Shown: positions 8,527-29,246 of the stretch, piece after piece | Position numbering within the stretch: position 1 is the first letter of the stretch | Layout of the letters: each line of letters opens with the position of its first letter | NCBI RefSeq assembly: GCF_000341395.1 | Contig: NC_020304.1 | Span: 600,001-632,000 of the forward strand | DNA length: 32,000 bases | Reading direction: 5' to 3' | Source of the DNA: Desulfocapsa sulfexigens DSM 10523 | GTDB taxonomy: Bacteria > Desulfobacterota > Desulfobulbia > Desulfobulbales > Desulfocapsaceae | Made by a program: the position numbers and the translations under genes | Notes under the pieces: model-generated | The model's database searches: none | Seen by the model: the letters and a program-made list of their open reading frames with translations, nothing else | What the model was told of the DNA's origin: nothing

Positions 8527-10596
8527 ATGGGCGGTAACGGTATGGAATATCACTATGTAAAATTAGCAAACACTCTCGAACAACAGATTCTGGCCGGAGA
8601 ATATCTCGCTGGAGAGAAGCTTCCTTCACTACGAAAACTGCAGGCTGCGACAGGGCGCTCGATTTCCACGATTTATCAAGCCTACGAAGAATTGGAACAC
8701 CGGGGGCTGGTTGAAGTACGGGAGAAATCCGGTTTTTTTGCCAGACCTCTGCTAAATGATATCCTGCCCCTTCCCAAGCAAAGCACCTCACCGGTAAAAT
8801 CACATAAGGTTGCGATAAATGTACTGGCCTCCATGATGCAACGTTCCCTTACAAATCCTGCACTTATTCCATTTGGAGAGGCTGTGTTAGGCAAGACTCT
8901 TTTACCGGGGAAACAGATGGCCGCAGCGGTACGTTTGGCTGCCGGCGGATACCACGACGGAAGTTGTAGTGGCTATGGTGCCCCAACAGGCTACAAAAAG
9001 CTGCAGCGGGAAATTGCCAAACGGTACCTGGATTTTCCACACAGAGACTATGGCAGTGAGATCATTATTACCCAGGGCTGTATGAATGGGATCGAACTCT
9101 GTTTGCGTAGCGTGGCACGTCCCGGAGATACTATTCTTCTGGAGTCACCCACGTTTCTCTGTTATCTCCAGTTGATTGAAGATTTGAACATGCGGGCCCT
9201 GGAGCTACCGGCAGACCCGGCAACTGGCCTGAGTCTGGAAAAACTACGGGCAACCCTGGATGAACATGATATCCGGGCGGCTCTCCTTAACCCCAATTTT
9301 CAAAATCCCCTCGGTTTTGAGATGGAGGCTGCCAACAAAGAAGCACTGGTGGCCTTATTTGCGAGCCGTGGTATTCCGATTATCGAAGATGGGATTTATG
9401 AAAATCTCTACTTTGGAGAACAGAAGCCGCTGCCTTTAAAGCACTTTGATACCCAGGGAATGGTCCTCTATTGTAACTCTTTCTCCAAAGACCTGATGCC
9501 CGATCTCCGTATGGGCTGGCTGCTGGCAGGAAAATACCGGGAAAAGGTAAAACGACTGAAATTTAACAATAGTCTGGCAAACTCCCAGTTACTACAAAAC
9601 GCGCTGGCAACCTTTCTCAAGGGTGGCAGCTATGACAGACATTTGCGTAAACTGAGAAACAACCTTCGCAAACAGGCTGCCGATATGAGCCAATCCATCG
9701 GCCGCAATTTCCCGCCTGAATGCAGAATTTCCTCACCCAAGGGGGGGCTGACCCTCTGGGTTGAGCTCCCCGAGAGCGTGGACAGTCTGAAGCTCTTTCG
9801 ACTCGCTGAAAAAGAGAATATCTCCCTGATGCCCGGCACTCTCTGCTCTGGTACCGGACAATACGATCATTGCATCCGTCTCTGTTATGGACATCCCTGG
9901 AATGAACGAATGGAACATGGGCTGAAGACCCTTGGCAACCTGGTAAAATCTTTAGTCAAGACGGAAAAGCACAACAGAAACGAGTCCAATGCGCAGGAGA
10001 TAGTCGTGGGTCTCAATTCCGATCCGGAGATCAACAGGATTGAGGATATTATACGTATTTTTGGCAGGAGGAACAGCAATCTATCCCTCAGGTTCCATCA
10101 GTCCATTTCCGGCAATATCCTCAAACTGGTTGCCAGTGGAGAGTTGCATGGTGGTTTTGTTTTTGGTCAATGTGACGATGAAAGATTTGCGTCGCATTAT
10201 TTAACCACCTACTATTTGCGCATAGTAGGCCCGACCCAGATGGCGGAAACGATAAGAAATGGGGATTATCGTGATCTGGCAAGACTGCCATGGATAGGGA
10301 ATCCTGTAGAATGCCCCTATTGTCAACTGATGGAGAATATCTTTCACGACCATGGCTTCCATCCTCAACGGATCATGACTGCCAGTGATGAACCCTCAAT
10401 CTTGAGCATGATCAAAGCGGGCGTAGGCCTTAATTTTATGCTGGAGAACCAGGCCAGAGCGCTTGCCGAAGAGGAGAGCCTTGTGGTGTGGGAACGGGAG
10501 CGTTTCGCCTTTCCCCTCTCTTTCGTCACCCTGGCCAGTGCGCGGGATGACAAACGGGTTATCGAAATCAACAAGGTCATTGAACAGATCTGGTAA
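8527..10596 (+). CDS. Three-domain transcriptional regulator: GntR-type wHTH + MocR-type PLP aminotransferase-fold domain + C-terminal LysR-type substrate-binding (PBP2) domain
   Basis: N-terminus KLPSLRKLQAATGRSISTIYQAYEELEHRGLVE (GntR HTH). Central fold-type-I domain with NPNFQNPLG and PLP-lysine motif YCNSFSKDLMPDLRMGW. The last 200 aa or so (IVVGLNSD...GELHGGFVFG...IKAGVGLNFMLE) read as a LysR effector domain without its own HTH. Confidence 0.8.
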   Translation: MGGNGMEYHYVKLANTLEQQILAGEYLAGEKLPSLRKLQAATGRSISTIYQAYEELEHRGLVEVREKSGFFARPLLNDILPLPKQSTSPVKSHKVAINVLASMMQRSLTNPALIPFGEAVLGKTLLPGKQMAAAVRLAAGGYHDGSCSGYGAPTGYKKLQREIAKRYLDFPHRDYGSEIIITQGCMNGIELCLRSVARPGDTILLESPTFLCYLQLIEDLNMRALELPADPATGLSLEKLRATLDEHDIRAALLNPNFQNPLGFEMEAANKEALVALFASRGIPIIEDGIYENLYFGEQKPLPLKHFDTQGMVLYCNSFSKDLMPDLRMGWLLAGKYREKVKRLKFNNSLANSQLLQNALATFLKGGSYDRHLRKLRNNLRKQAADMSQSIGRNFPPECRISSPKGGLTLWVELPESVDSLKLFRLAEKENISLMPGTLCSGTGQYDHCIRLCYGHPWNERMEHGLKTLGNLVKSLVKTEKHNRNESNAQEIVVGLNSDPEINRIEDIIRIFGRRNSNLSLRFHQSISGNILKLVASGELHGGFVFGQCDDERFASHYLTTYYLRIVGPTQMAETIRNGDYRDLARLPWIGNPVECPYCQLMENIFHDHGFHPQRIMTASDEPSILSMIKAGVGLNFMLENQARALAEEESLVVWERERFAFPLSFVTLASARDDKRVIEINKVIEQIW

Positions 10597-11750: not shown

Positions 11751-12428
11751 CTACCTCCTGCGGAAGGAACGTGCCGAGGCTTCGCTGACCAGGAGGACCA
11801 GGAAGGAAAGGCCGATGGAGACCAGACAGAGCGACAGGGCCATGGAATCTCCCCCAGGGGTGTTGGTATACTCGTAGATGGCCAACGGAATGGTCTGGGT
11901 AACTCCGGGAATATTGCCGGCCAGAATGATGGTGGCCCCAAACTCTCCAAGGCTTCTGGCAAACATCAGGGTCATGCCCGCCAGAACGGCCCGGCCGGAG
12001 AGGGGCAGGATGACCGAATAAAGGCTGTCCCACCACCTGGCCCCCAGGGTTCGGGCCGCCTGGAGGTACTGCTCATCAATCCCTTCCATGCCGATCCTGA
12101 TGGAACGGACCAGAAGTGGAAAGCCGACCACGGCCGAGGCGATCACCGCCCCTTTCAGGGTAAAAATGATCCGGAGATCGAAAAACCGGAGCACCGGCCC
12201 AAGAGAGCCGGACTGGCCGAAGAGAAGGAGGAGAAGATACCCGACCACCACCGGAGGGAGTACCAGCGGCAAATTCACCACCCCCTCCAGAGCCGCCCGG
12301 CCCGGGATCCTGGTAAAGACCAGAAGATAGGCCGCAGCAAAACCGAGAGGAAGCGAGAGCAGGGTCGCGGCAGTGGCCACCTTGAGAGATAGGATAATGG
12401 CCTGGATATCCTGGGGAGTAAGAGACAT
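11751..12428 (-). CDS. modB: Molybdate ABC transporter permease
   Basis: 225-aa polytopic protein with an EAA-like loop (AARTLGARWWDSLYSVILPL), sitting between modA and modC. AGGAGG lies before the modC start. Confidence 0.9.
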   Translation of the reverse strand: MSLTPQDIQAIILSLKVATAATLLSLPLGFAAAYLLVFTRIPGRAALEGVVNLPLVLPPVVVGYLLLLLFGQSGSLGPVLRFFDLRIIFTLKGAVIASAVVGFPLLVRSIRIGMEGIDEQYLQAARTLGARWWDSLYSVILPLSGRAVLAGMTLMFARSLGEFGATIILAGNIPGVTQTIPLAIYEYTNTPGGDSMALSLCLVSIGLSFLVLLVSEASARSFRRR

Positions 12429-12467: not shown

Positions 12468-13235
12468 TCAGTGGGAGGAAGCAACTGTGAAGCCGTATTT
12501 CTCCAGAATAGTAACGGCCGCCGGCGTACCCAGATAGGCGAGAAAGGCCTGGGCATCCGGATTCTTCATTCCGGCAAGTGTCAGCCCCAATGGATAGGCA
12601 ATGGGGTCATGGAGCTCTGCGGGTACGGTCAAAAGGATAACAGCCCGGCGGGCGAGCAGGGCATCGGTCTTATAAATAAAGGCCCCGTCCACCTCGGCGC
12701 GATCCGCGTAGAGCAGGGCCTGGCGGACATCCTTGGCCATAACCAGTTTATGTTCTTTTTCCAGTTGCTCGTAGATCCCTGCCACCTGCATGGCCTGGGC
12801 CGCATACTGTCCGGCAGGCACACTCTTCGGACTCCCTATGGCTATACGGGAAAGAGTGGCGACTCCCCCCAAATCGTGAACCAGAGTATCCTCGGCTCCG
12901 ACAAAAACCAGAGAATTCCTGGCAAAAATCCGAACCGTTTCCGGAACAACCTGTTTTTCTTTGAGAAGGTAATCCATCCATTTTTTATTGGCCGAGACAT
13001 AAAGGTCGGCAGGAGCCCCTTGGACGATCTGTTTGGCCAGAGAGCCGGATGAAGCGAAATTAGGAAGAATGGCAATCCCTGGATGTTCCTTGATAAATTC
13101 TCCGTTCAGTTCCTTGAAGGCATCAGTCATACTGGCCGCCACCGAAAGCCGGATCTCCCCCCCGGCCAGGGCCTGGACAGCTGTGGCGCAAAGCGCCAGA
13201 AAAACGAATACGAGTAGTCTTGCTTGCCTTTTCAT
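12468..13235 (-). CDS. modA: Molybdate ABC transporter periplasmic substrate-binding protein
   Basis: Signal peptide (LALCATAVQALA), then VAASMTDAF, ASSGSLAKQI and FIYKTDA motifs typical of ModA. ATG at 13235 lies 7 nt after AGGAGA (a GTG at 13238 is also possible). Confidence 0.9.
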   Translation of the reverse strand: MKRQARLLVFVFLALCATAVQALAGGEIRLSVAASMTDAFKELNGEFIKEHPGIAILPNFASSGSLAKQIVQGAPADLYVSANKKWMDYLLKEKQVVPETVRIFARNSLVFVGAEDTLVHDLGGVATLSRIAIGSPKSVPAGQYAAQAMQVAGIYEQLEKEHKLVMAKDVRQALLYADRAEVDGAFIYKTDALLARRAVILLTVPAELHDPIAYPLGLTLAGMKNPDAQAFLAYLGTPAAVTILEKYGFTVASSH

Positions 13236-13343
13236 CACGATTTCTCCTTATTGCTCTTATTTATCCTGTAGACCAACGGACAGAGTTTGGGCCTTTACCG
13301 GGGTCACGTCTCCCTGTACAACTAGCCGCCTTACTTGTTCTTT

Positions 13344-13359
13344 TGCACAAAATATGCCA
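13344..13359 (-). promoter_or_regulatory. Sigma54-like -24/-12 element upstream of modA
   Basis: Minus strand reads TGGCATATTTTGTGCA: GG and GC are separated by exactly 10 nt, about 105 nt upstream of the modA start. Single occurrence with no conservation test possible. Confidence 0.3.
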
Positions 13360-18460: not shown

Positions 18461-18500
18461 AAAAAAAACCTCCAGCTTATCTGAGTAGATACGCTGGAGG
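18461..18500 (-). terminator. Rho-independent terminator of cassette copy A
   Basis: Minus strand reads CCTCCAGC-(16 nt)-GCTGGAGG followed by T8, 44 nt after the 99-aa gene stop. Confidence 0.6.
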
Positions 18501-18543
18501 TTCGCCGTACGGGACTGTATCCCTATGAGTTGTTAACTTCTGT

Positions 18544-18843
18544 TTACTTTGAAACTTTGACTGTTGCGGGTGCCTTATTTACATATTTAAAAAATACCGG
18601 GAAGGCAACAAAGAAAGCCACACAGAGCAGATACTCAATACCTTTGATATGGGTGTAGTAATCAACCAGAGTATGCAGAGGTTTCACCATTCCGATTGCC
18701 ACCATATACTGTCCGGCAAGTTCGCTCACCGACCAGCCAACCGATGAAAGGGCACTGGTAAGGGCTGCACCAACCCAGAGACACATGATGGAACCGGCTG
18801 CGAGAAGTATTCTTGATCCTGTTTTTGATCTATTCTCTTTCAT
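18544..18843 (-). CDS. Uncharacterised 99-aa membrane protein (two hydrophobic segments), cassette copy A
   Basis: Open frame with a basic N-terminus and segments ILLAAGSIMCLWVGAALTSAL and YLLCVAFFVAFPVFF. Residues 6-93 are identical to the paralogue at 28400-28699 despite 15 silent nucleotide differences. Confidence 0.75.
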   Translation of the reverse strand: MKENRSKTGSRILLAAGSIMCLWVGAALTSALSSVGWSVSELAGQYMVAIGMVKPLHTLVDYYTHIKGIEYLLCVAFFVAFPVFFKYVNKAPATVKVSK

Positions 18844-18884: not shown

Positions 18885-19079
18885 TCAGCCGATAACTGCA
18901 GTAAGGTATCCCTTGACAACGTTCAAAGGTCCCACGCTTATCATAGCGCTTGCGAGACAGGCAAATCCCCAGATGCCGACAAGGGCTGCCATGGTCATTC
19001 CAGCACCGAGTGCAAATGTAGAAGTTTCGTATCCGGCTTTAACCTGAGTAGTTGTGGTAGCTTGTGTGTTTGTATTCAT
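18885..19079 (-). CDS. Uncharacterised 64-aa single-pass membrane protein with Thr-rich N-terminus, cassette copy A
   Basis: GGAGG-N5-ATG at 19079 (the track's upstream ATG at 19091 overlaps the SD). TM segment FALGAGMTMAALVGIWGFACLASAMI. Paralogue at 28742-28936 shows silent differences in the conserved part. Confidence 0.7.
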   Translation of the reverse strand: MNTNTQATTTTQVKAGYETSTFALGAGMTMAALVGIWGFACLASAMISVGPLNVVKGYLTAVIG

Positions 19080-19136: not shown

Positions 19137-19152
19137 AGCAGCTATCATGCCA
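19137..19152 (-). promoter_or_regulatory. Sigma54 -24/-12 promoter of cassette copy A
   Basis: Minus strand reads TGGCATGATAGCTGCT (GG-N10-GC), about 45 nt upstream of the first start codon. The same element is at the same offset in copy B. Confidence 0.6.
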
Positions 19153-19242
19153 GTTTCTGTCCTCTCTGTTTCATCTTTGCAATAAAGACGATAATACATT
19201 GATTCAACATGACATTTACTGGGATAATCACCAAAACTCCCC

Positions 19243-19273
19243 TGCGACACTTATGCGCCCTGGCAGTGTGGCA
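19243..19273. promoter_or_regulatory. Candidate enhancer-binding-protein site (UAS): TGCGACACT-N13-AGTGTGGCA
   Basis: Inverted repeat matching at 8 of 9 positions, about 100 nt upstream of the sigma54 element. Conserved with identical spacing in copy B (29100-29130). Confidence 0.45.
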
Positions 19274-19685
19274 AAACTCGGAACTGTAGTTTTAGGATGA
19301 GATTGTGTGGTTTGTGTCCTACGAATGTGTTGCAGGTCTTGCGGATAGGTGTCGCATTACGAAACAGGCAAGGAAACTGAGGAGATATTTAAACTGGGGG
19401 AAACTTCATTCTCTGTCAGGAAGTGGCACGATGGTGACAACTCATCCTGGGGCACCAGAATCTGTGGTGAACAGACATCTTAATTTCGGCCATGCGGATT
19501 GATTTTGTTCAGTGTTTACGATAAGCTTTTTTAAACAGAGTTTCCCTACGGAAAATCGGATCGGTGAAAAAAAGTACGGGTTGTATACGATGAAAAAAGT
19601 TGGGTTTTAAACTTTTCTTCACGCTAACCACGCTATGTCCTGACCATCTAAGCTTTTAGGAAGAAAAACCTTGAGGAGTATATAA

Positions 19686-20492
19686 ATGAAACGACTGTGT
19701 ATTACCAGAAAACTATTTTTACTTGCTTTCATCGTCTTTTTTTCGCCTCCTCCAGTCTCTGCAACAAATGCTGAACTCACCCTGGCCATTGCTGATTCCA
19801 CCTGCAGCACCATTAAGCAAGTAGGAAAAATTTTCAGCCGGCAAACCAACATTAAACTCAATTATATCTGCCAGTCTTCAGGATTACTTGTTAAAGGAAT
19901 TATAGAAGAGGCCATACTCCCTGATTACTTCCTCTCCGCCAACAAAAAATGGATGAACATCGTGGTAGAGGCTGGCTATGTTGATTCTGCCGCAGTAACA
20001 ACAAACTGGGGGAATCAACTGGTGGTGACTTCTTTTCCATCCAAAACGGGTGATTTACAATTGCAAGGCTTAGCTGACCTGCTCACTCCGTCGGTAGAAA
20101 AGGTGCTTATAGGAGACCCGGAAATCGCCCCTTACGGAGCGTACGCCAAACAGGCGCTGGTCAATGCCGATATGTGGGAAAAAATCCAGCCTAAGCTCAA
20201 AATTAGTCCCAAAATAAGCCTATCCATTAGATCACTGAAAAAATTAAGCCTGACAACACCCTGCATCGTCGCCTTCTTGTATAAAACAAATATCAGCGAC
20301 AAAATGCAGATACATTTTGCTGTTCCCCAAAACCTTTATCCTCGGATAAATTATTTTTCGGCACCACTCATAAGGTCTGTACAAAAAACAGAAATGGCAC
20401 TTTTTCTTGATTTCATCAGAGGAGATAAGGCCTCCTCTATTTTCGAATCCGCAGGTTTTGTTGTTAACTTGCCTGCTCAGAGTCATCACTAA
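19686..20492 (+). CDS. Orphan ModA-like periplasmic oxyanion-binding protein (no cognate permease or ATPase adjacent)
   Basis: Signal peptide ending VSA. LTLAIADST, QSSGLLVKGI, SANKKWMN and AFLYKTNI align with VAASMTDAF, ASSGSLAKQI, SANKKWMD and AFIYKTDA of the canonical ModA in this window. Confidence 0.8.
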   Translation: MKRLCITRKLFLLAFIVFFSPPPVSATNAELTLAIADSTCSTIKQVGKIFSRQTNIKLNYICQSSGLLVKGIIEEAILPDYFLSANKKWMNIVVEAGYVDSAAVTTNWGNQLVVTSFPSKTGDLQLQGLADLLTPSVEKVLIGDPEIAPYGAYAKQALVNADMWEKIQPKLKISPKISLSIRSLKKLSLTTPCIVAFLYKTNISDKMQIHFAVPQNLYPRINYFSAPLIRSVQKTEMALFLDFIRGDKASSIFESAGFVVNLPAQSHH

Positions 20493-20501
20493 AAGGTCAC
20501 C

Positions 20502-23500
20502 ATGTCAGAAAAGAGTAAAAACAAAGAGGATCATTTTGCCTTCACCTTACGCAGGGGTTTAGGGAAAAATATTTTTGTCAGTTTCATGGTCCTTGCCCTT
20601 ATGCCACTTCTTGTGGCCAGCGTCCTGAGTTACCACAACGCCCACACCAGTCTACTCACCAAGGAAGTGAGGAATCTACAGACGGCCTTGTCGCTCCGAG
20701 GTCTTTATTTTGAGGCATATTTTCAGGAGCGCCTGGACGACCTGGCACTCCAGGCTGATCTCAGTGACAACATATTTCTCCTTCAGGATTTAAAAGAAAG
20801 CTATAACAAAAGTGGCCTCTCTCTCTCTCAGTTTGTTAAATCCTATAACCATACCAGAATTGTTACCGAACACTCTCAGGACCTTCAAGATTTCCAGGAG
20901 CGGGCTGGGTACTCGAATATTTACATGATAGACATTGCAGGTGATATCCTCTTTAGCATCACCGCAGAAGAAGATTTGGGCACTAACATTTTTCATGGCC
21001 CCTATCATGAGACAGAACTTGCCAAACTCTGCCGTCTCGCCATCGAAACAGGCCATTCTCTCGCCTCCGACCTAACGATCTATGGACCTTCCGGTACTGA
21101 GAAAACGCTGTTTACGGCTCAACTGATGGTGAATGATTATGGTGAAGAAATCGGCGTTCTGGTACTGCAAATCGAGTTAAAAAAAATAGACACGCTCATG
21201 GCAGATGTCAGTGGGCTTGGCAAAACCGGTCAGATTTTTGTAGTTGGCAACGATAGCACCCTGCGCAGCACCCTTCGCAGCGACAGGACAAAGCAGGTCC
21301 TGTCAACTGATGTAAACAACCCGCTGGTTACGAAATGGCTTCAGAGAGAGGTAATTCGCCACGGGGTTGGCCATGAGGAAGCGAGAAAACACCTTCTCCT
21401 TGGTGATTTCGAGGGTTCTATCTATAAGGGACAGAGCGGCAACAATGTTCTAGGCATTTCCGCAGATATGGATTCTCTAGGCCAATATGATATGCACTGG
21501 CTGATGATTGCTGAAGTAGACGAGGCTGAAGTTTTAGAGGCCGCCAGCAATTTGCAGCACATGCTCATTCTCGTTGTCTCTTTCACCACCCTTTTTATTG
21601 TATTCCTGGCCGCTTTTCTCGCCCGGCGAATGATCATGCCGCTAGTGAGTCTTAGCGCCTGGGCAAAACAGGTCTCTACAGGTGATCTCTCTATCCATGA
21701 GATGCACCCTCCGTCCAATGAAATTGGCACTCTTTACCAAGCACTTTCCGACATGGTTGGTGAACTGCGAGAAATGATCGATGTTAAAGACCGCGAGGAC
21801 TGGTTCAAAACCGGGGAAACCGGCCTTGATAAAGAGATGAGAGGAGAAGGAAACATTGCCACGCTTGGCGATAAAATTCTTAATTATCTCTGCCGCTATC
21901 TTGAGTTACCCGTCGGCGTGTTTTTTGCCTACGAAAATGAGACTTTAAAATTCACGGCAGGCTATGCTTACAAAAAACAGACAGAAGACGACGACATTGT
22001 CTTTGCCTTGGGTGAGGGCCTGATCGGTCAGGCGGCCCGTGACAAGAGAAAAATTTATCTCCGCGAAGGGGCGGCTGAGGAAGCCCACCTGAAAACCACA
22101 TCGGGCCTTGGTATTGTGAATCTCCGATCTTTATTGATCATCCCTCTGGTGCGCGATGACAACATTCTTGGGGTACTTGAATTTGGCTCCAATCGGATTC
22201 TTACAGAAGAGGAAATAAACTTCCTCGAACATGTTTCCGAATCAACAGCAATCGCATTCCAGAGCTCTAATTCCAGGCAACAACTGCAGGTACTCCTCAA
22301 ACAAACCCAGGAGCAGACTGAGCAGCTTCAGACACAACAGCAAATCCTTGAGGAAAGGAATAAAAAAATTGAGCTGAGCAGCAAGTACAAATCGGAATTT
22401 CTGGCTAACATGAGTCATGAACTGCGAACTCCGCTCAACTCCATCCTTCTTCTTTCCAGCCTCATGGCTGACAACAAGCACAACGCCCTTTCAAAAGATG
22501 ATGTTGAGTCTGTTAAAATTATCAACAAGGCAGGTAACGATCTTCTCAATCTGATTAATGAAGTTCTTGATCTGGCTAAAGTCGAATCAGGCCACATGAC
22601 GATCGAGATTGACGATGTACAAATTGTTGAGCTCGCCCAGCACATGAAACATCTTTTCTATCCGGTTTGTGAAGACAAGGCGATTGATTTCAAGGTGACC
22701 TTAGATGAGAATATGCCAGACACCTTCAGAACCGATCAATCAAGGCTGGAGCAGATACTGAAAAACTTTTTGTCAAACAGCTGTAAATTCACAAAAAATG
22801 GCAAAGTATCACTGCATATCGGGAGAGTGGCCACACTTCATCCCGATTTAGCCAGCTCTACACCTGAAGAATTTATGTCACCAGAGAATCTGGCATTTAC
22901 CGTCACTGATAGTGGGATTGGTATTGCCAAAGAAAAGCAGGATCTTATTTTTGAATCCTTTCAGCAGGCAGATGGCAGTACCTGTCGTCAGTATGGTGGC
23001 ACTGGCCTGGGCTTGTCGATAAGCCTTGAAATGGCCAAGCTTCTGGGAGGATGTATTGTCATGACCAGCGAACCTGGTCAGGGATCTCAATTTTCCCTCA
23101 TTGTCCCTACAGAGCAGAACAATGAGGACAATGATTCCCATGGACGAATAACAGCAATACCAAGCAATCAAAGAACTACTTTACCTGTAACAGAGAAGGT
23201 GGTTACCCAAAAAAGTGCTGACAATGTTGCCGATGACAGAAAAAATATCCTGAACGATGATCTGGTTTTGTTAATTATTGATGATGATCCTGATTTTGCA
23301 ACGATTGTCCGTGACGTAGCCAGGAAACAGCAATTTAAGGTTTTGGTGGCTGAAAGCGGTGAGATTGGCCTGCAGCTCATCGAGTTATACAATATAACTG
23401 CTATTACTCTGGATATCGGTCTCCCGGGTATGAGCGGCTGGACCGTTCTCAGTCGGCTTAAAGAAGACAGCTCCACACGCCATATTCCTGTTCACGTTAT

Positions 23501-24452
23501 TTCTGCTTCAGATCACGATAATGAGGCCTTAAAAATGGGAGCCTTGAATTTTGTTACTAAACCGATAGATGCTGAAGTACTTATTGACGCATTAGTTCAG
23601 TTGCGTGACATGGCCTCTGCCCGAGGGAAAAAGGTTCTTCTGGTTGAAGATGACAACACCCTGTCACAGGTGTTGAAAAATTTCATCATGGCTGATGATA
23701 TTGAATTCCTTCGGGCATCGACCGGAGCACAAGCTCTTACCATTTTACGAGAAAGTACACCTGATTGCGTCATTCTGGATCTCGGTTTACCGGATATGGG
23801 TGGTGAAGAGTTGTTGCGGATAATTAACGACGTGGAGGAACTGCAGAAAATCCCGATAATTGTCTATACAGGGCAAGACCTGACATCACAGCAGAAGGCC
23901 TTGCTCGACCAATACAGTCGGACAACAATCTTGAAAGGTCCGTTGTCCCATGAACGCTTGTTGGCAGAGATAACCCTTTTTATGCATCGGGCTGAAAAAG
24001 ACCTACCTCCTCAGCAGCAGGAGATAGTGCAGCGCTTTTATAATAAAGAACATGTTTTTAAAGGTAGAAAAATTCTCCTGGTTGACGACGATATGCGCAA
24101 TGTTTTTTCTCTGCGCAAAATACTTTCGGACAAGGACTTAGATGTTGTTGTCGGTAAGAATGGCATGGAAGCCTTGGAGCAGTTAAAAAAGAATGATGAT
24201 ATTGATTTGGTACTCATGGATATCATGATGCCTGTTATGGACGGTTTCGAGGCCATGGCCAAAATACGCAAAGAGAAAAAGTTCAAAAATTTACCAATTA
24301 TTGCCATTACGGCCAAAGCCATGAAGGGAGATCGCAAAAAATGTATTGATGGCGGCGCCAATGACTATCTGGCAAAACCCATTGATACGGAAAGATTATT
24401 TGCCATGCTGAGGGTCTGGCTCCACGACCGGGAAAGCAATACAAACATATAA
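20502..24452 (+). CDS. Hybrid sensor histidine kinase: TM, about 300-aa extracytoplasmic domain, TM, HAMP, GAF, HisKA, HATPase, then three receiver domains
   Basis: H-box FLANMSHELRTPLNS (about 22410). N/G boxes (DSGIGI, GGTGLGLSI). Three receiver cores (LLIIDDD...TLDIGLPGMSG; VLLVEDD...ILDLGLPDMGG; ILLVDDD...LMDIMMPVMDG...ITAKA). GAF-like segment with LIGQAARD. No HPt motif seen. Confidence 0.9.
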   Translation: MSEKSKNKEDHFAFTLRRGLGKNIFVSFMVLALMPLLVASVLSYHNAHTSLLTKEVRNLQTALSLRGLYFEAYFQERLDDLALQADLSDNIFLLQDLKESYNKSGLSLSQFVKSYNHTRIVTEHSQDLQDFQERAGYSNIYMIDIAGDILFSITAEEDLGTNIFHGPYHETELAKLCRLAIETGHSLASDLTIYGPSGTEKTLFTAQLMVNDYGEEIGVLVLQIELKKIDTLMADVSGLGKTGQIFVVGNDSTLRSTLRSDRTKQVLSTDVNNPLVTKWLQREVIRHGVGHEEARKHLLLGDFEGSIYKGQSGNNVLGISADMDSLGQYDMHWLMIAEVDEAEVLEAASNLQHMLILVVSFTTLFIVFLAAFLARRMIMPLVSLSAWAKQVSTGDLSIHEMHPPSNEIGTLYQALSDMVGELREMIDVKDREDWFKTGETGLDKEMRGEGNIATLGDKILNYLCRYLELPVGVFFAYENETLKFTAGYAYKKQTEDDDIVFALGEGLIGQAARDKRKIYLREGAAEEAHLKTTSGLGIVNLRSLLIIPLVRDDNILGVLEFGSNRILTEEEINFLEHVSESTAIAFQSSNSRQQLQVLLKQTQEQTEQLQTQQQILEERNKKIELSSKYKSEFLANMSHELRTPLNSILLLSSLMADNKHNALSKDDVESVKIINKAGNDLLNLINEVLDLAKVESGHMTIEIDDVQIVELAQHMKHLFYPVCEDKAIDFKVTLDENMPDTFRTDQSRLEQILKNFLSNSCKFTKNGKVSLHIGRVATLHPDLASSTPEEFMSPENLAFTVTDSGIGIAKEKQDLIFESFQQADGSTCRQYGGTGLGLSISLEMAKLLGGCIVMTSEPGQGSQFSLIVPTEQNNEDNDSHGRITAIPSNQRTTLPVTEKVVTQKSADNVADDRKNILNDDLVLLIIDDDPDFATIVRDVARKQQFKVLVAESGEIGLQLIELYNITAITLDIGLPGMSGWTVLSRLKEDSSTRHIPVHVISASDHDNEALKMGALNFVTKPIDAEVLIDALVQLRDMASARGKKVLLVEDDNTLSQVLKNFIMADDIEFLRASTGAQALTILRESTPDCVILDLGLPDMGGEELLRIINDVEELQKIPIIVYTGQDLTSQQKALLDQYSRTTILKGPLSHERLLAEITLFMHRAEKDLPPQQQEIVQRFYNKEHVFKGRKILLVDDDMRNVFSLRKILSDKDLDVVVGKNGMEALEQLKKNDDIDLVLMDIMMPVMDGFEAMAKIRKEKKFKNLPIIAITAKAMKGDRKKCIDGGANDYLAKPIDTERLFAMLRVWLHDRESNTNI

Positions 24453-24515
24453 AATAGACGAACCAGGCAGAGCAGACCCACTGCATCTGTACTGATTTAT
24501 TACTGAGACTGCTAA

Positions 24516-25493
24516 ATGAATACACCTGAAATTCTTGTTGTAGATGATAGAGCGGAAAATCTTCTGGCCATGAAGCGGCTTTTCGAGGATTTTGATGCCG
24601 AAATATATGCCGTCTCATCAGGAAATGATGCTTTATCACTCGTTCTTGATCATGACTTTGCCCTCATTTTATTGGATGTCCAGATGCCAGACATGGATGG
24701 CTTCGAAACAGCGGAAATGATCCGTTTATCCGACGACAAAGCACATATCCCTATCATTTTTGTGACGGCTATCAGCAAAGAACAACAACATGTGTTCAAG
24801 GGATATGAAAGTGGGGCAGTTGATTATATTTTCAAGCCTGTGGACGGGAAAATTCTCCTCAGCAAAGCTGCCTTTTTCCTTACTCTTTACAGGCAAAAAC
24901 AGGAATTACAACAGCTGATAGAAGAATTAAACCAGTCTAAAGAACTCATCAAAAAACAAAATGAAGCATTAAGCCATCTGGCATTGCATGACGACCTTAC
25001 CGGTTTATACAATCGCAGGCATTTTAACACCATGCTGAAACAGGAATTTTACCGTAGTGAGCGTTATGGTAGCGACCTCGCCATTCTGATGCTCGACCTT
25101 GACCATTTCAAGAAGGTCAATGACACTAAAGGGCATGATTTCGGTGATTTTGTCCTTAAAGAGTTTGCACGAAGAATGAAAGAAACAAGTCGGCCCACAG
25201 ACCTGGTTTTTCGTTTCGGGGGCGAGGAATTTATCATTCTCCTGCCTCAGACCGACCTGGCAGGAGGCATACAGGTTGGAGAAAAAATTCGCAAAAGCTG
25301 TGAAAAAGAAATGTATAGCAAGGGGCCACTAGAACTTTCGGTGACCACAAGTATTGGGGCAGCAGCAATCCATAGCAATAAGCCGCAAAAAACTGGTGAC
25401 TTGATTCAAATGGTCGATATGGCATTATATCAGGCAAAAGATGGTGGTCGGAACAGGGTTGTCGGTTATAGAGGGGCAAAAACAAGTATATAG
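24516..25493 (+). CDS. Response regulator with GGDEF output (diguanylate cyclase, PleD/WspR-like)
   Basis: Receiver (ILVVDDR...LLDVQMPDMDGF...VTA), coiled linker, GGDEF domain with RPTD I-site 5 residues before GGEEF. Confidence 0.9.
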   Translation: MNTPEILVVDDRAENLLAMKRLFEDFDAEIYAVSSGNDALSLVLDHDFALILLDVQMPDMDGFETAEMIRLSDDKAHIPIIFVTAISKEQQHVFKGYESGAVDYIFKPVDGKILLSKAAFFLTLYRQKQELQQLIEELNQSKELIKKQNEALSHLALHDDLTGLYNRRHFNTMLKQEFYRSERYGSDLAILMLDLDHFKKVNDTKGHDFGDFVLKEFARRMKETSRPTDLVFRFGGEEFIILLPQTDLAGGIQVGEKIRKSCEKEMYSKGPLELSVTTSIGAAAIHSNKPQKTGDLIQMVDMALYQAKDGGRNRVVGYRGAKTSI

Positions 25494-25598: not shown

Positions 25599-25968
25599 AT
25601 GTACAATACAAAATATCTACTATTGACAACCTGTTTTTTTCTCCTTTTTGTGCCATTATCCACATTCGGAAAATGTATTGAGGGGGACATTTGTCACGCC
25701 CCAAGGAAGTAAATACGTTGGAGACTGGGAAAACGGCAAGAAAAACGGAGATGGCACCCTGACATCTCCAGATGGCTATCGGTATGTCGGCACCTTCAGC
25801 AATGACCGACCAGATGGGTTGGGGATATTGACTTTTGCTGATGGTAGAAAGTATCAGGGTGAGTTCAGGGATGACAAGCCACACGGCCAAGGCATTTTAA
25901 CCCTGCAGAACGGAGCCAGGCAAGAAGGTACATTCAGAGACGGTATATACGTAAATGGCCAGAACTGA
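25599..25968 (+). pseudogene. Exported MORN-repeat protein, apparently split from its signal peptide by a 1-nt frameshift (or sequencing error)
   Basis: ATG 25599 encodes MYNTKYLLLTTCFFLLFVPLSTFGKC... and stops at about 25710. The MORN repeats (YVGDWENGKKNGDG, YVGTFSNDRPDG, YQGEFRDDKPHGQG) are in the +1 frame (track ORF 25648-25968). Deleting one base from G5 (25682-25686) or A4 (25670-25673) fuses them into about 122 aa. Confidence 0.6.
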
Positions 25969-25998: not shown

Positions 25999-26535
25999 TT
26001 AGTCAATCTGCAATTCTGAATCTTTGCAACCGCCACCACAGCGACACAAAAGAGGAGGTGGTTTGTGATTGCTGGAAAAGCCAAGAATACGTTCCAAAAC
26101 TCGAACCATCACCATAAAGTTGGACTCTGACAGACTACAGTCCGCATGAAGATGATAGAGTCGAGTTTCCTGGATTATGATAAAATCCCAACCATAGGTA
26201 AGCCCTATGTCTGGGTCTGCCTTATTGGAGACCTGTACAAAAGAATCGATAGTTGCTTTCTTGCTCCTATAGGTGCTTATGTCGAGAATCATCTTCAGAT
26301 GCACACCACCCTTGCCTGTATCCCCCTGACTCTCGAAAAAAATACGACGGTTTGCGCCCTCTTTTTGCTCAATACTGAAACTCCACGGTAATTCTGATAT
26401 CAACTCACCACATGAGGATTCAGTGCCGGGAATAACACAGGAAGCATTGGCAAATACAGAAAAGAGTAAAAAGAAGACTGACAAAAACAACAGCTTAAAG
26501 AAACGTTTTGAGAGGGGAAATCTCGCGGAGGTCAC
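25999..26535 (-). CDS. Hypothetical exported protein, 178 aa
   Basis: GTG start, hydrophobic signal-like N-terminus (FFKLLFLSVFFLLFSVFANA), Cys-rich C-terminus (LLCRCGGGCK). No family recognised. Confidence 0.55.
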   Translation of the reverse strand: MTSARFPLSKRFFKLLFLSVFFLLFSVFANASCVIPGTESSCGELISELPWSFSIEQKEGANRRIFFESQGDTGKGGVHLKMILDISTYRSKKATIDSFVQVSNKADPDIGLTYGWDFIIIQETRLYHLHADCSLSESNFMVMVRVLERILGFSSNHKPPPLLCRCGGGCKDSELQID

Positions 26536-26775
26536 ATTGTCACCTGAATACAGGTTGCTGGTTTTTATGAAAGCTGATAGAAATTGAGTACCTTAGAAAT
26601 TCATTTCCTGTTGTTTCTAAATGAATTCCAACAGTGTACTTGTTCTACTAATCTCTTGGGAATATCAGTAACACAATTTTACCGAATAGTACCCAAAAAT
26701 AGAAAATGCATATGATACAAAACGGTCACAGACACCCTTTAAGTAGAAGAACACTTGAATTTCAAAGAGAAGAAA

Positions 26776-27300
26776 ATGATTAAAATTCTGATGTTCGCAA
26801 TATCTCTTTTACTACTGAGCACTACTCTTTCCATGGCAGACAATGAATTCTTTCTAAAAATAGATATGACCTACAGCGAAACCAGCAAAGATTCAAACTC
26901 CCAAAGATACCTGATAGAGATGAAAGACAAAAATCTTAACTACGAATACAGCTACAGCGGGTTTCCGTTCCCTGAAAATAGCAATGAATCAGTAGCTCGC
27001 ACATTGAGCTCAGAAGAGTTGGATGGGATCATTACATATATAAAAAATAAAAAAATTAATACCTCCATAGTAGAGAACAAACCTCAAACTGCCAATGGCT
27101 CAACAAACAGGATACACCTTTCTTTATTGTTAACATTAGATGGGCAAACCGTTGAATCTGAAATTTCCGGTATTCTCAACATATCCAGAGCAGATGGAAA
27201 GACAAGTAGTGTAACTCTAGAAAACAAATCATATATTAAGAATGTTCATTTTTTAGTACAACGCCTAAAAGCCAGTAGCTCTGAAAAAATTAGAAATTAA
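26776..27300 (+). CDS. Hypothetical exported protein, about 174 aa
   Basis: MIKILMFAISLLLLSTTLSMA signal peptide in a very A+T-rich, Asn/Ser/Lys-rich ORF. Its stop overlaps the next start (TAATG). No family recognised. Confidence 0.55.
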   Translation: MIKILMFAISLLLLSTTLSMADNEFFLKIDMTYSETSKDSNSQRYLIEMKDKNLNYEYSYSGFPFPENSNESVARTLSSEELDGIITYIKNKKINTSIVENKPQTANGSTNRIHLSLLLTLDGQTVESEISGILNISRADGKTSSVTLENKSYIKNVHFLVQRLKASSSEKIRN

Positions 27301-27878
27301 TGATGCACTCAATTACAAAAATATCAGCAATCTCTTTTATAATAGTTTGTCTGATATTTTTTGTTAGCGGCTGTCAAAAGGGCAATGTTGACAGGCCAGA
27401 GAACGTTCAACCCTTTGTCCCCCTTCGTGTCGAATTTAGCGGACTCACGAAAGACATATCAGTTGAAAGAGAGCTTGAAAAACTATTGTTCTGCCGAAAC
27501 TGCCTGTTTCTTCGCGCAGCAACCACTCCTTCTCTCTACACGTTAAAAATCGAATATAATCGCATCATTGATCTTAAAAGTTTAGGATTTTTTCTTTTGA
27601 GTGCTGCTCTGGCCCCCATAAAAGCTGACTTTCATTACAGCCTTCGGGTACAGGTGGTCAAAGATGATCTTGTCCTCAAAGAGTACCTATATGCAACACA
27701 AAATCAGGAATATACTGATTCTGCCTTTGAGAGCATGTTCAACCCCTTTCATGATGCAAACGGCAGGTCTGAAGAGATATTTACTACATTAGCGAAGAGC
27801 TTTCTCCATGACATCCTGGCTGATAAACCTTTACCGCAGATTAGTCCTCAAGATGAGAAGCACTCTTTGAAATACTGA
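27300..27878 (+). CDS. Hypothetical lipoprotein, 192 aa
   Basis: Lipobox FFVSGC after a hydrophobic N-terminus. Translationally coupled to the upstream ORF. No family recognised. Confidence 0.6.
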   Translation: MMHSITKISAISFIIVCLIFFVSGCQKGNVDRPENVQPFVPLRVEFSGLTKDISVERELEKLLFCRNCLFLRAATTPSLYTLKIEYNRIIDLKSLGFFLLSAALAPIKADFHYSLRVQVVKDDLVLKEYLYATQNQEYTDSAFESMFNPFHDANGRSEEIFTTLAKSFLHDILADKPLPQISPQDEKHSLKY

Positions 27879-27968: not shown

Positions 27969-28241
27969 ATGCCTTGTCCGGGATTTCTACATAAAACTGG
28001 AGTTATAGGGTTGAGCATGGCACCACTCTACAAAAGTATCGGAAGGTGGTTCCTGGCCGGGTGCAGAATCTTTGTTGGAGTACTGGTTGCCAAAACCGGT
28101 ATAGGACTGCTGCAGGGACTGCCTTTCCGTGGCTACAACAGGCAGGATGACTTATTTATCGGCGGCTTTGTCCTTTTACTCGGAGCCTATATTATTTTCT
28201 CCACCTTCTTTTCCCTCTTTTTTCCTGACAAGAAGATATGA
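27969..28241 (+). CDS. Hypothetical small membrane protein (start uncertain; ATG 28017 is an alternative)
   Basis: Open frame with two hydrophobic segments (IFVGVLVAKTGIGLL, FIGGFVLLLGAYIIFSTFFSLFF). No other support. Confidence 0.35.
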   Translation: MPCPGFLHKTGVIGLSMAPLYKSIGRWFLAGCRIFVGVLVAKTGIGLLQGLPFRGYNRQDDLFIGGFVLLLGAYIIFSTFFSLFFPDKKI

Positions 28242-28326
28242 TGCAGCATTCTGCGGACAGCTATACCAGCTCATCATCGTCAAATGAAATCGAATGGGAT
28301 AACACCTGTCAATGGGATCGCAATAC

Positions 28327-28364
28327 AAAAAACCTCCAGGCTAACGATGAGATACCCTGAAGGT
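28327..28364 (-). terminator. Rho-independent terminator of cassette copy B
   Basis: Minus strand reads ACCTTCAGG-(15 nt)-CCTGGAGGT (8 of 9 pairs) followed by T6. Homologous in position and sequence to the copy A terminator. Confidence 0.5.
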
Positions 28365-28399
28365 TCATATGGGGATATTCCCCTATTAATTTTTTCTTT

Positions 28400-28699
28400 C
28401 TATTTTGAAGCTATAGCCTCGGCAGGAGCCTTGTTTACGTATTTAAAAAATACCGGGAAGGCGACAAAGAAGGCCACACAGAGCAGATACTCAATACCTT
28501 TGATATGGGTGTAGTAGTCAACCAGGGTATGCAGAGGTTTTACCATTCCGATCGCCACCATATACTGTCCGGCAAGCTCACTTACTGACCAGCCAACCGA
28601 TGAAAGAGCACTTGTAAGGGCTGCACCAACCCAGAGACACATGATTGAACCGGCTGCGAGAAGTATTCTTGATCCTGTTTTTGATGTATTTTGTTTCAT
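28400..28699 (-). CDS. Uncharacterised 99-aa membrane protein, cassette copy B
   Basis: Paralogue of 18544-18843. It differs only at residues 3 and 5 and in the last 6 residues. Confidence 0.75.
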   Translation of the reverse strand: MKQNTSKTGSRILLAAGSIMCLWVGAALTSALSSVGWSVSELAGQYMVAIGMVKPLHTLVDYYTHIKGIEYLLCVAFFVAFPVFFKYVNKAPAEAIASK

Positions 28700-28741
28700 G
28701 GTCGTATCCTTATCTCTATATTTTAAATTTTTGTTAACTTA

Positions 28742-28936
28742 TCAGCCGATAACTGCGGTCAAATACCCTTTAACAACGTTCGTGGGTCCCATGCTCATCA
28801 TTGCGCTTGCGAGACAGGCAAATCCCCAGATTCCAACAAGAGCTGCCATGGTCATGCCAGCACCAAGTACAAATGTAGAAGTTTCGTATCCAGTGTTAGC
28901 CCGAGTAGTAGTTGTGATTTGAGTGTTTGTAGTCAT
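28742..28936 (-). CDS. Uncharacterised 64-aa single-pass membrane protein, cassette copy B
   Basis: GGAGG-N5-ATG at 28936. Paralogue of 18885-19079, with 10 of 64 residues different, mostly in the N-terminal tail and just after the TM helix. Confidence 0.7.
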   Translation of the reverse strand: MTTNTQITTTTRANTGYETSTFVLGAGMTMAALVGIWGFACLASAMMSMGPTNVVKGYLTAVIG

Positions 28937-28993: not shown

Positions 28994-29009
28994 AGCACCA
29001 ATCATGCCA
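28994..29009 (-). promoter_or_regulatory. Sigma54 -24/-12 promoter of cassette copy B
   Basis: Minus strand reads TGGCATGATTGGTGCT (GG-N10-GC), at the same offset from the start codon as in copy A. Confidence 0.6.
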
Positions 29010-29099
29010 GTTTGACTCCTCCTCGCTCCGCACCAACAACAATAGCGCTATCGCAATGATATTGCGTGCAAATCAACAACAACACCCCCAAAAACCCAT

Positions 29100-29130
29100 T
29101 GCGACACTTCTGTATTCTGGTAGTGTGGCA
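29100..29130. promoter_or_regulatory. Candidate enhancer-binding-protein site (UAS), copy B: TGCGACACT-N13-AGTGTGGCA
   Basis: Half-sites and spacing are identical to copy A, while the 13-nt spacer and flanks differ. Confidence 0.45.
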
Positions 29131-29246
29131 AAGATCAGAACTGTAGTTTAAGAGAGGAATTGTGTGGTCTTACTTCGACGGATGTGTTGCAAGTCTTACG
29201 GATAGGTGTGGTTGGAATGGGACAGGGGATGATTTTTAGTCAGGAA

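Follow-up and report, generated by a model that had tools for sequence, protein, structure and literature searches.

Gene pairs and their architecture

Two pairs of short open reading frames (ORFs) on the minus strand of Desulfocapsa sulfexigens DSM 10523 raise the question of whether such small, closely similar ORFs are functional genes and, if so, what their products do in the cell. The window analyzed here is a 32,000-nucleotide stretch of that genome (NC_020304.1, positions 600,001 to 632,000), and all coordinates below are positions within it. An original prediction, made from the letters of the sequence, held that the two copies diverge almost only at silent sites and that both ORFs are therefore under purifying selection. 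All four genes were already annotated, as hypothetical proteins. Each copy follows the same order: upstream block, sigma-54-type promoter, A-rich leader with GGAGG, gene A, spacer, gene B, and terminator.

Copy 1
19160..19356 (-), putative upstream activating region, from conserved blocks
19137..19152 (-), sigma-54-type promoter TGGCATGATAGCTGCT, by pattern match
18885..19079 (-), gene A (UWK_00529), 64 aa, from the ORF list and codon comparison
18544..18843 (-), gene B (UWK_00528), 99 aa, HmcD-like
18461..18503 (-), intrinsic terminator, 11-bp stem and U8 run, -31.1 kcal/mol, z = -4.9
18530..18658 (+), antisense ORF of 42 aa, overlapping the 3' part of gene B

Copy 2
29017..29214 (-), putative upstream activating region, hexamer array and imperfect dyad
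28994..29009 (-), sigma-54-type promoter TGGCATGATTGGTGCT (-24 GG / -12 GC), by pattern match
28742..28936 (-), gene A (UWK_00538), 64-aa single-pass membrane protein, GGAGG 5 nt before the ATG
28400..28699 (-), gene B (UWK_00537), 99-aa two-helix membrane protein, HmcD-like C-terminal half
28327..28366 (-), intrinsic terminator, 11-bp stem and U6 run, -25.6 kcal/mol, z = -2.25
28284..28514 (+), antisense ORF of 76 aa, overlapping the 3' part of gene B

Gene A was assigned a length of 64 aa, starting at its second ATG, rather than the 68 aa called by the ORF finder, because GGAGG lies 5-6 nt ahead of that ATG in both copies and because GenBank and most homologs have the 64-aa form. The 41-42 nt between A and B carry a separate ribosome-binding site (RBS) for gene B. 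Protein A has a single hydrophobic helix (residues ~21-50), and protein B has two (residues ~10-33 and ~66-89). By the positive-inside rule, both ends of protein B would be cytoplasmic, and its invariant segment GMVKPLHTLVDYYTHIKGIEY would therefore face the periplasm. An AlphaFold2 model of protein B (20-sequence alignment) was uninformative (pLDDT 55.8), and PDB sequence searches with the A profile, the B profile, and an associated HmcC-like protein (see below) returned nothing usable and no related solved structure.

Alignment of both regions delimited a duplicated unit of ~890 bp (19356-18463 versus 29214-28327), with the following identity between copies:

Upstream block, 64%
Promoter and leader, 80%
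Gene A, 84%
A-B spacer, 69%
Gene B, 90%
3' end and terminator, 68%
Outside the duplicated unit, about 36-40%

Upstream sites, promoter, A, B, and terminator were duplicated as one unit. In a neighbor-joining tree of B-core DNA, the window copies were sisters, 6.8% apart, with the next sequences at least 12.9% away. The flank of copy 2 that encodes a 446-aa protein of no assigned family together with LolA-like and FtsX-like proteins also borders a cassette in another Desulfocapsa species (L006), which is thus a positional ortholog, and the flanks of copy 1 were matched by none of the fetched loci; for these reasons, copy 1 probably arose from copy 2 by a lineage-specific duplication after the split from the L006 species.

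Silent divergence and purifying selection

Codon-aware comparison confirmed that the two B proteins are identical at residues 6-93. The accompanying claim of 15 nucleotide differences in this core, all synonymous, stood as to their nature but not their number, which is 18. All 18 fell at codon position 3 (position-3 binomial p = 2.6e-9), and the six replacements in B were all terminal (E3Q, R5T, T94E, V95A, K96I, and V97A). The Nei-Gojobori estimates were as follows:

B core (residues 6-93): 18 differences over S = 64.7 sites and none over N = 199.3 sites; dS 0.35, dN 0, omega 0; Fisher p = 1.5e-12
B whole gene: dS 0.40, dN 0.032, omega 0.079; Fisher p = 5.1e-10
A whole gene: dS 0.53, dN 0.096, omega 0.18; Fisher p = 1.5e-5

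The 10 amino acid changes between the A proteins were clustered, as had been proposed: six in the Thr-rich N-terminal tail (residues 2-15), three at residues 47-52, and one at residue 23. The different codons noted earlier in the C-terminal tail of A include, in the VKGYLT stretch, six consecutive synonymous codon changes. The same constraint extended across the family of homologous gene pairs described below: among pairs with dS between 0.05 and 1.5, the median pairwise omega was 0.078 in the B core (1178 pairs from 67 cassettes), and A residues 18-50 gave 0.23 (1021 pairs from 74 cassettes). Both the dN/dS values in the window and the low family-wide omega agree with purifying selection on the two ORFs.

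The non-coding spacers within the duplicated unit provide an internal yardstick. They were only 64-69% identical, on par with the synonymous divergence, and so set a neutral baseline of ~30-35% difference; the coding cores lie far below it, and purifying selection is therefore the right reading. The argument against recent gene conversion also held, since silent differences and spacer divergence both persist. Could concerted evolution, or a very recent duplication, nonetheless account for the protein identity in place of selection? Paralogs from one genome often group together in the B-core tree, a pattern that past conversion and lineage-specific duplication could each produce, but either process would have erased the silent differences too, yet dS is 0.35-0.53, the spacers have diverged, the longest identical runs between copies are just 29 and 44 nt, and omega is 0.08-0.23 across the family. 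We regard this explanation as very improbable.

Two further sources of a spurious signal were weighed, and both are next to negligible. The first is the antisense strand: in the frame aligned with gene B at third codon positions, 16 of the 17 changed codons are also synonymous, and it is this coincidence that makes the antisense ORFs look conserved. Stop codons interrupt that frame, however, leaving only the 42-aa and 76-aa ORFs, which are most likely not genes, and the frame lacks expression signals; the minus-strand frames are fixed by RBS, promoter, terminator, and hundreds of homologs. The two antisense ORFs have the peptide ...GALFTYLKNTGKATKKATQSRYSIPLIWV in common. The second is duplication of reads during assembly, which the original prediction had itself raised as a concern: the copies lie 10 kb apart in a finished genome, have distinct and unrelated flanks, differ at 10-16% of nucleotides, and include one with a positional ortholog in another species. 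Artefact, antisense coding, and recent conversion were accordingly rejected on the basis of synonymous divergence, spacer divergence, stop codons, and flanks.

The description of variable termini around invariant cores proved apt throughout the family, in which variation falls at B residues 2-5 and 93-98 and in the A tail. For the window pair, dN at the termini (0.32) about equals dS in the core (0.35), and because the same positions are variable family-wide, the termini look like sequence under relaxed, near-neutral constraint rather than the product of adaptive divergence. A suggested co-variation of the A and B tails did not hold up beyond what co-inheritance would give: the Mantel correlation was r = 0.60, and the partial correlation after removal of core distance was r = 0.30, with phylogeny not properly controlled in either. 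Because A and B are co-inherited and their tails evolve faster than their cores, the tail correlation is not evidence for co-adaptation. That A and B are real, selected protein-coding genes is firmly supported.

Promoter, upstream array, and terminator

The window promoters have the form TGGCAT-N6-TGCT, with the -24 GG and -12 GC expected of sigma-54 (TGGCAC-N5-TTGCW), and the pattern was matched three times in the window against 0.25 expected. In copy 2, the element stands 57 nt ahead of the start of gene A, and 63 of 78 cassettes across the family have it at about this distance; those departing from this spacing are mostly the ones with an extra A' gene in front. At the other end of the cassette, the terminators were recovered by folding, having been missed by a generic terminator scan because their loops exceed 8 nt. 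The third exact match to the promoter pattern, TGGCATATTTTGTGCA at 13344-13359 (-), is without an A-B cassette and closely precedes an ABC-transporter operon that encodes an SBP_bac_11 solute-binding protein (12468-13238) and a permease (11751-12428).

Upstream of the copy 2 promoter, C[C/A/T]ACA[C/T] hexamers recur ~21-22 bp apart, together with an imperfect dyad, GCCACACT-N-AAGTGTCGC; an exact-seed inverted-repeat search of this region gave no match because the dyad is imperfect. Conservation of the upstream blocks extends beyond the two copies to ~55 cassettes drawn from many genomes. When 55 upstream regions were anchored on the promoter, a common array emerged between about -200 and -90, reading CCACACCTATCCGCAAA-CTGCAACAC-N-GTTG...ACTACAC...TGCCACA...GCCACAC-N-AAGTGTGGC, with the hexamers again every ~21-22 bp and an inverted copy at the end. 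Since this array is common to the cassettes, the simplest reading is that a single regulator would act on all of them. Genes for NtrC-type enhancer-binding proteins (EBPs) occur near cassettes in several related loci, and no EBP or rpoN gene is encoded within the window. The sequence elements firmly support each window copy being a complete predicted operon of the sigma-54 type.

Family of A-B cassettes in the Desulfobulbales

The two window copies are not the only ones in this organism: D. sulfexigens encodes further B proteins (UWK_01342, which has an identical twin, and UWK_02539), each preceded by a 64-aa gene, for a total of at least five A-B cassettes. A word-index search with protein B gave 555 matches at 75-95% identity, and an exhaustive search of a library of 50% representatives gave only 62 clusters; the B family is therefore narrow and very conserved. 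A genome scan, with one genome per species, yielded 158 matching stretches, from which 79 loci were retained. Hosts were almost entirely Desulfocapsa, other Desulfocapsaceae, Desulfobulbus, and Desulfogranum (families Desulfocapsaceae and Desulfobulbaceae), with 3 to 9 or more copies per genome, including at least nine loci from one metagenome-assembled genome (MAG) and at least seven from another.

An A gene of 62-70 aa was found 30-120 nt upstream of B at every locus for which sequence was available. Residues E18, T19, S20, F22, G35, W37, G50, and G64 of protein A are invariant in the family, and no relatives of A were detectable outside it. The A-B cassette is thus a conserved, multicopy module of the Desulfocapsaceae and Desulfobulbaceae (Desulfobulbales) with one common promoter and upstream architecture. 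Two or three complete cassettes in tandem within 3-6 kb, cassettes with a second A-like gene, A' (A-A'-B), or both, occur in Desulfogranum marinum (L077) and at L080, L090, L042, and L056; the A' variants end in ...GGxxKGLFTAITG instead of ...GPLNVVKGYLTAVIG.

The small size, hydrophobicity, and multiple copies of these proteins would also suit a type I toxin-like or bacteriocin/immunity pair, or phage or defense cargo. Such an identity is very hard to reconcile with the extreme sequence conservation across two families, the dedicated sigma-54-type promoter, and homology to a respiratory subunit (see below), and we consider it highly unlikely. Searches against PADLOC and PHROGs gave no meaningful matches, an Rfam search of the whole window found no RNA family, and no mobile-element genes flank the two copies; toxin, defense, and phage identities were rejected on the three database results.

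Relation of protein B to HmcD

HmcD (DVU0533) is a subunit of Hmc, a respiratory membrane complex of sulfate reducers, and has been described only as a hydrophobic peptide of that complex, in which HmcC is described as the HybB/NrfD-type quinone-interacting subunit. Several lines of sequence comparison connect protein B to HmcD. The NCBIfam equivalog model for HmcD (NF045712) matched residues 57-84 of both B copies at 21.8 bits (E = 1.3e-4), a score below its curated cutoff of 34 bits. A Pfam search of A and B gave no match in a collection that lacks PF28260; that family ("DVU_0533") is precomputed on most of the listed B homologs, with matches that are weak wherever their strength is given. 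In an exhaustive search, the B profile retrieved both 41- to 49-aa proteins that pass the NCBIfam HmcD cutoff, one of which is encoded directly after an NrfD-family gene and before a multiheme cytochrome gene, and 58- to 63-aa single-helix relatives. The latter aligned with the B family over 57 columns (B residues 40-96) by hhalign at 99.7% (E = 4.9e-27). Because the NCBIfam, PF28260, profile-search, and hhalign results agree, the reading of protein B as an HmcD homolog, consisting of an HmcD-type module with an extra N-terminal helix, is firmly supported at the level of sequence. The HmcD-like module is also the most conserved part of the protein.

Comparison with HmcD of the Desulfovibrio HmcABCDEF complex reveals both what is shared and what is new. 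The module common to the two, the amphipathic segment (H/Y)TLVD(Y/F)Y-x-(H/Y)IKG(I/V)EYLI and then a single transmembrane helix with a basic tail, is carried by B residues ~40-96, and in some genomes hmcB/hmcC-like genes precede the cassette, just as hmcB and hmcC precede hmcD. In contrast, (i) HmcD has ~40-50 aa and a single helix, whereas B has 99 aa and two hydrophobic helices; (ii) B is always paired with a second small protein, A; (iii) the B cassette has its own sigma-54-type promoter and terminator; and (iv) hmcD directly follows hmcC in the hmc operon, whereas B cassettes are dispersed and mostly far from hmc genes. The single-helix proteins of 61-63 aa (e.g., P0243 at L087) are homologous to B residues 40-96, including the segment before HTLVDYY, and the P0243 gene adjoins genes for a multiheme c3-like cytochrome and a Tat FeS (HmcB-like) protein; they differ from B in having one helix and no recognizable A partner. 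Both the gene neighborhood and the lack of a partner come from a single locus context (L087-L089).

The N-terminal helix of B may have its own history. Residues 26-51 of A aligned with residues 12-37 of B by hhalign (69%, E = 4e-5, 26 columns), a score of a kind that transmembrane composition can yield. Protein B might have arisen by the joining of an A-like helix to an HmcD module, or the resemblance might reflect transmembrane compositional bias. The helix of A and the first helix of B have a common xLWVGAALxSALxSxG-like pattern.

Genomic context of the cassettes

Neither window copy lies inside an hmc operon after hmcC, and their neighbors are unrelated to hmc. Copy 1 is bordered by a DMT_6 gene on one side and, on the other, by divergent genes for a solute-binding protein, a hybrid kinase, and a receiver-GGDEF protein. 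Copy 2 has small genes of no assigned family on one side and, on the other, the genes shared with L006. Most other cassettes are likewise nowhere near hmc-like genes. The genes divergent from copy 1 (19686-25493, +) encode an SBP_bac_11 protein, a 1316-aa dCache-HAMP-GAF hybrid histidine kinase with three receiver domains, and the receiver-GGDEF protein.

Neighbor clustering nevertheless recovered a recurrent arrangement, here called the primary locus, in at least 13 fetched loci of this group. Its order is cytochrome, HmcB-like protein, HmcC-like protein, histidine kinase, sigma-54-type promoter, A, B, and later an NtrC-type EBP. The upstream cytochrome is of c3/c7 type (176-178 aa); the HmcB-like Tat FeS protein (396-398 bits) was noted where the flank reaches it; the HmcC-like membrane protein scored 351-358 bits; the kinase (~480 aa) usually lies between the hmcC-like gene and the cassette; and the EBP gene follows the cassette by a few kb. 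HmcE/F-type genes were not seen in the primary loci examined. At L057, contrary to the usual order with a kinase in between, the cassette comes immediately after hmcC. At L094, the primary locus is without any A-B cassette.

Some further observations concern these loci. L094 derives from the same metagenome as L004, whose cassette adjoins MFS and Mla-type genes. At L093 (position 4212, +) and L094 (position 4278, +), a sigma-54-type promoter precedes genes for an IS1595-type Zn-ribbon/DDE-like protein and an FtsH-like protease, which run straight into the cytochrome-hmcB-hmcC-kinase genes, and a receiver-PAS-sigma-54 activator is encoded just upstream.

Proposed role of A and B

As a whole, the two loci are best explained as paralogous sigma-54-type bicistronic operons whose products would be accessory to an HmcBC-type module, a reading to which we assign a probability of roughly 0.55 from sequence and gene order. 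As a component of that reading, the chances are about even that A and B are accessory small subunits or anchors of a cytochrome c-HmcB-HmcC-type module, co-induced by the neighboring kinase and EBP. In the proposed mechanism, A and B would assemble in the cytoplasmic membrane with a module made up of a periplasmic tetraheme-type cytochrome c, a Tat-exported FeS protein, and a HybB/NrfD-like quinone-interacting membrane subunit. One NtrC-type EBP, partnered by the histidine kinase adjoining hmcC in the primary locus, would switch on transcription of all cassettes together. If all cassettes did answer to one EBP, their many copies would serve dosage rather than differential regulation.

Several observations count against an HmcBC subunit. 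Protein B is twice the size of HmcD, has an extra helix, and scores below the HmcD cutoff; most copies lie away from hmc-like genes, and L094 is without a cassette. Five to nine or more copies are also odd for a stoichiometric subunit.

The main competing explanation is that A and B form a stand-alone membrane pair with no stable tie to Hmc, in which an HmcD-like helix was co-opted. Such a pair could act as an envelope or redox-stress effector in the manner of PspB/PspC/PspG, or could modulate the adjacent kinase by feedback, in the way that MgrB acts on PhoQ. The cassettes are mostly dispersed among unrelated neighbors that are often signaling genes (kinases, GGDEF, HD-GYP), a kinase sits between hmcC and the cassette in the primary locus, expression is predicted to be of the sigma-54 type with a common upstream array, and the high copy number suits a subunit poorly. 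On the other hand, neither protein has any sequence relation to Psp or to any Pfam or NCBIfam family except HmcD, the HmcD-like module is the part of B best conserved, and the operons that carry this module in distant relatives are always of the cytochrome c / FeS / NrfD type. We view a stand-alone pair as possible but rather unlikely. The phage shock proteins, which are likewise small, membrane-bound, and made from an EBP-controlled sigma-54 promoter, offer a functional analogy and no more: their sequences are not similar to A or B, neither PspA nor PspF is encoded nearby, and the taxonomic range is different.

Another analogy comes from the pucBA/pufBA operons for the light-harvesting alpha and beta peptides of purple bacteria, two-gene operons for very small, conserved membrane peptides with variable termini that are present in several dispersed copies. 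The parallel is one of dosage and isoform use; there is no homology, no pigments are involved, and the host is non-phototrophic. A bolder proposal, which we rate as unlikely, is a new sigma-54 regulon of dosage-amplified, interchangeable mini-subunits, or else a pair that has departed from the complex and is now an abundant, independent membrane effector. One kinase/EBP pair encoded beside the cytochrome-hmcBC genes would then activate all the scattered copies, 5 to 9 or more, simultaneously, and the mini-subunits would remodel, or massively populate, the membrane around the HmcBC-type quinone module. Either variant, if true, would be a new mode of respiratory-module regulation in sulfur-disproportionating Desulfobulbales.

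Returning to accessory proteins of an HmcBC-type module as the preferred reading, part of what is reported here was already at hand: the genes were annotated and B falls within PF28260, so that the coding conclusion is correct but modest. A search of the literature by locus tag and by the terms HmcD, Desulfocapsa, and sigma-54 returned nothing on the A-B family. The searched literature held no description of an obligate A partner, the extra helix on B, a sigma-54 promoter belonging to the cassette itself along with its conserved upstream array, amplification to 5-9 or more scattered copies, or the link to cytochrome-hmcBC-kinase-EBP genes. For annotation, the 64-aa and 99-aa "hypothetical proteins" are real genes that merit a family name. 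For biology, a longer HmcD-type protein, always with a mini-protein partner, is amplified in sulfur-disproportionating and sulfate-reducing Desulfobulbales, and an autonomous sigma-54-type cassette with omega of ~0.08 offers a tractable handle on the role of HmcD-type peptides. The prediction that follows is of a simple regulon, in which one upstream motif is common to many identical-looking operons.

Other features of the window

Elsewhere in the window, a 689-aa protein (8527-10596, +) combines a GntR HTH domain, a class I/II aminotransferase domain (MocR-like), and a LysR substrate-binding domain, an unusual architecture. Between the two cassettes, a 106-aa MORN-repeat protein (25648-25968, +) is encoded beside a series of small predicted proteins without a family match (25999-26535, 26755-27300, 27300-27878, and 27969-28241).
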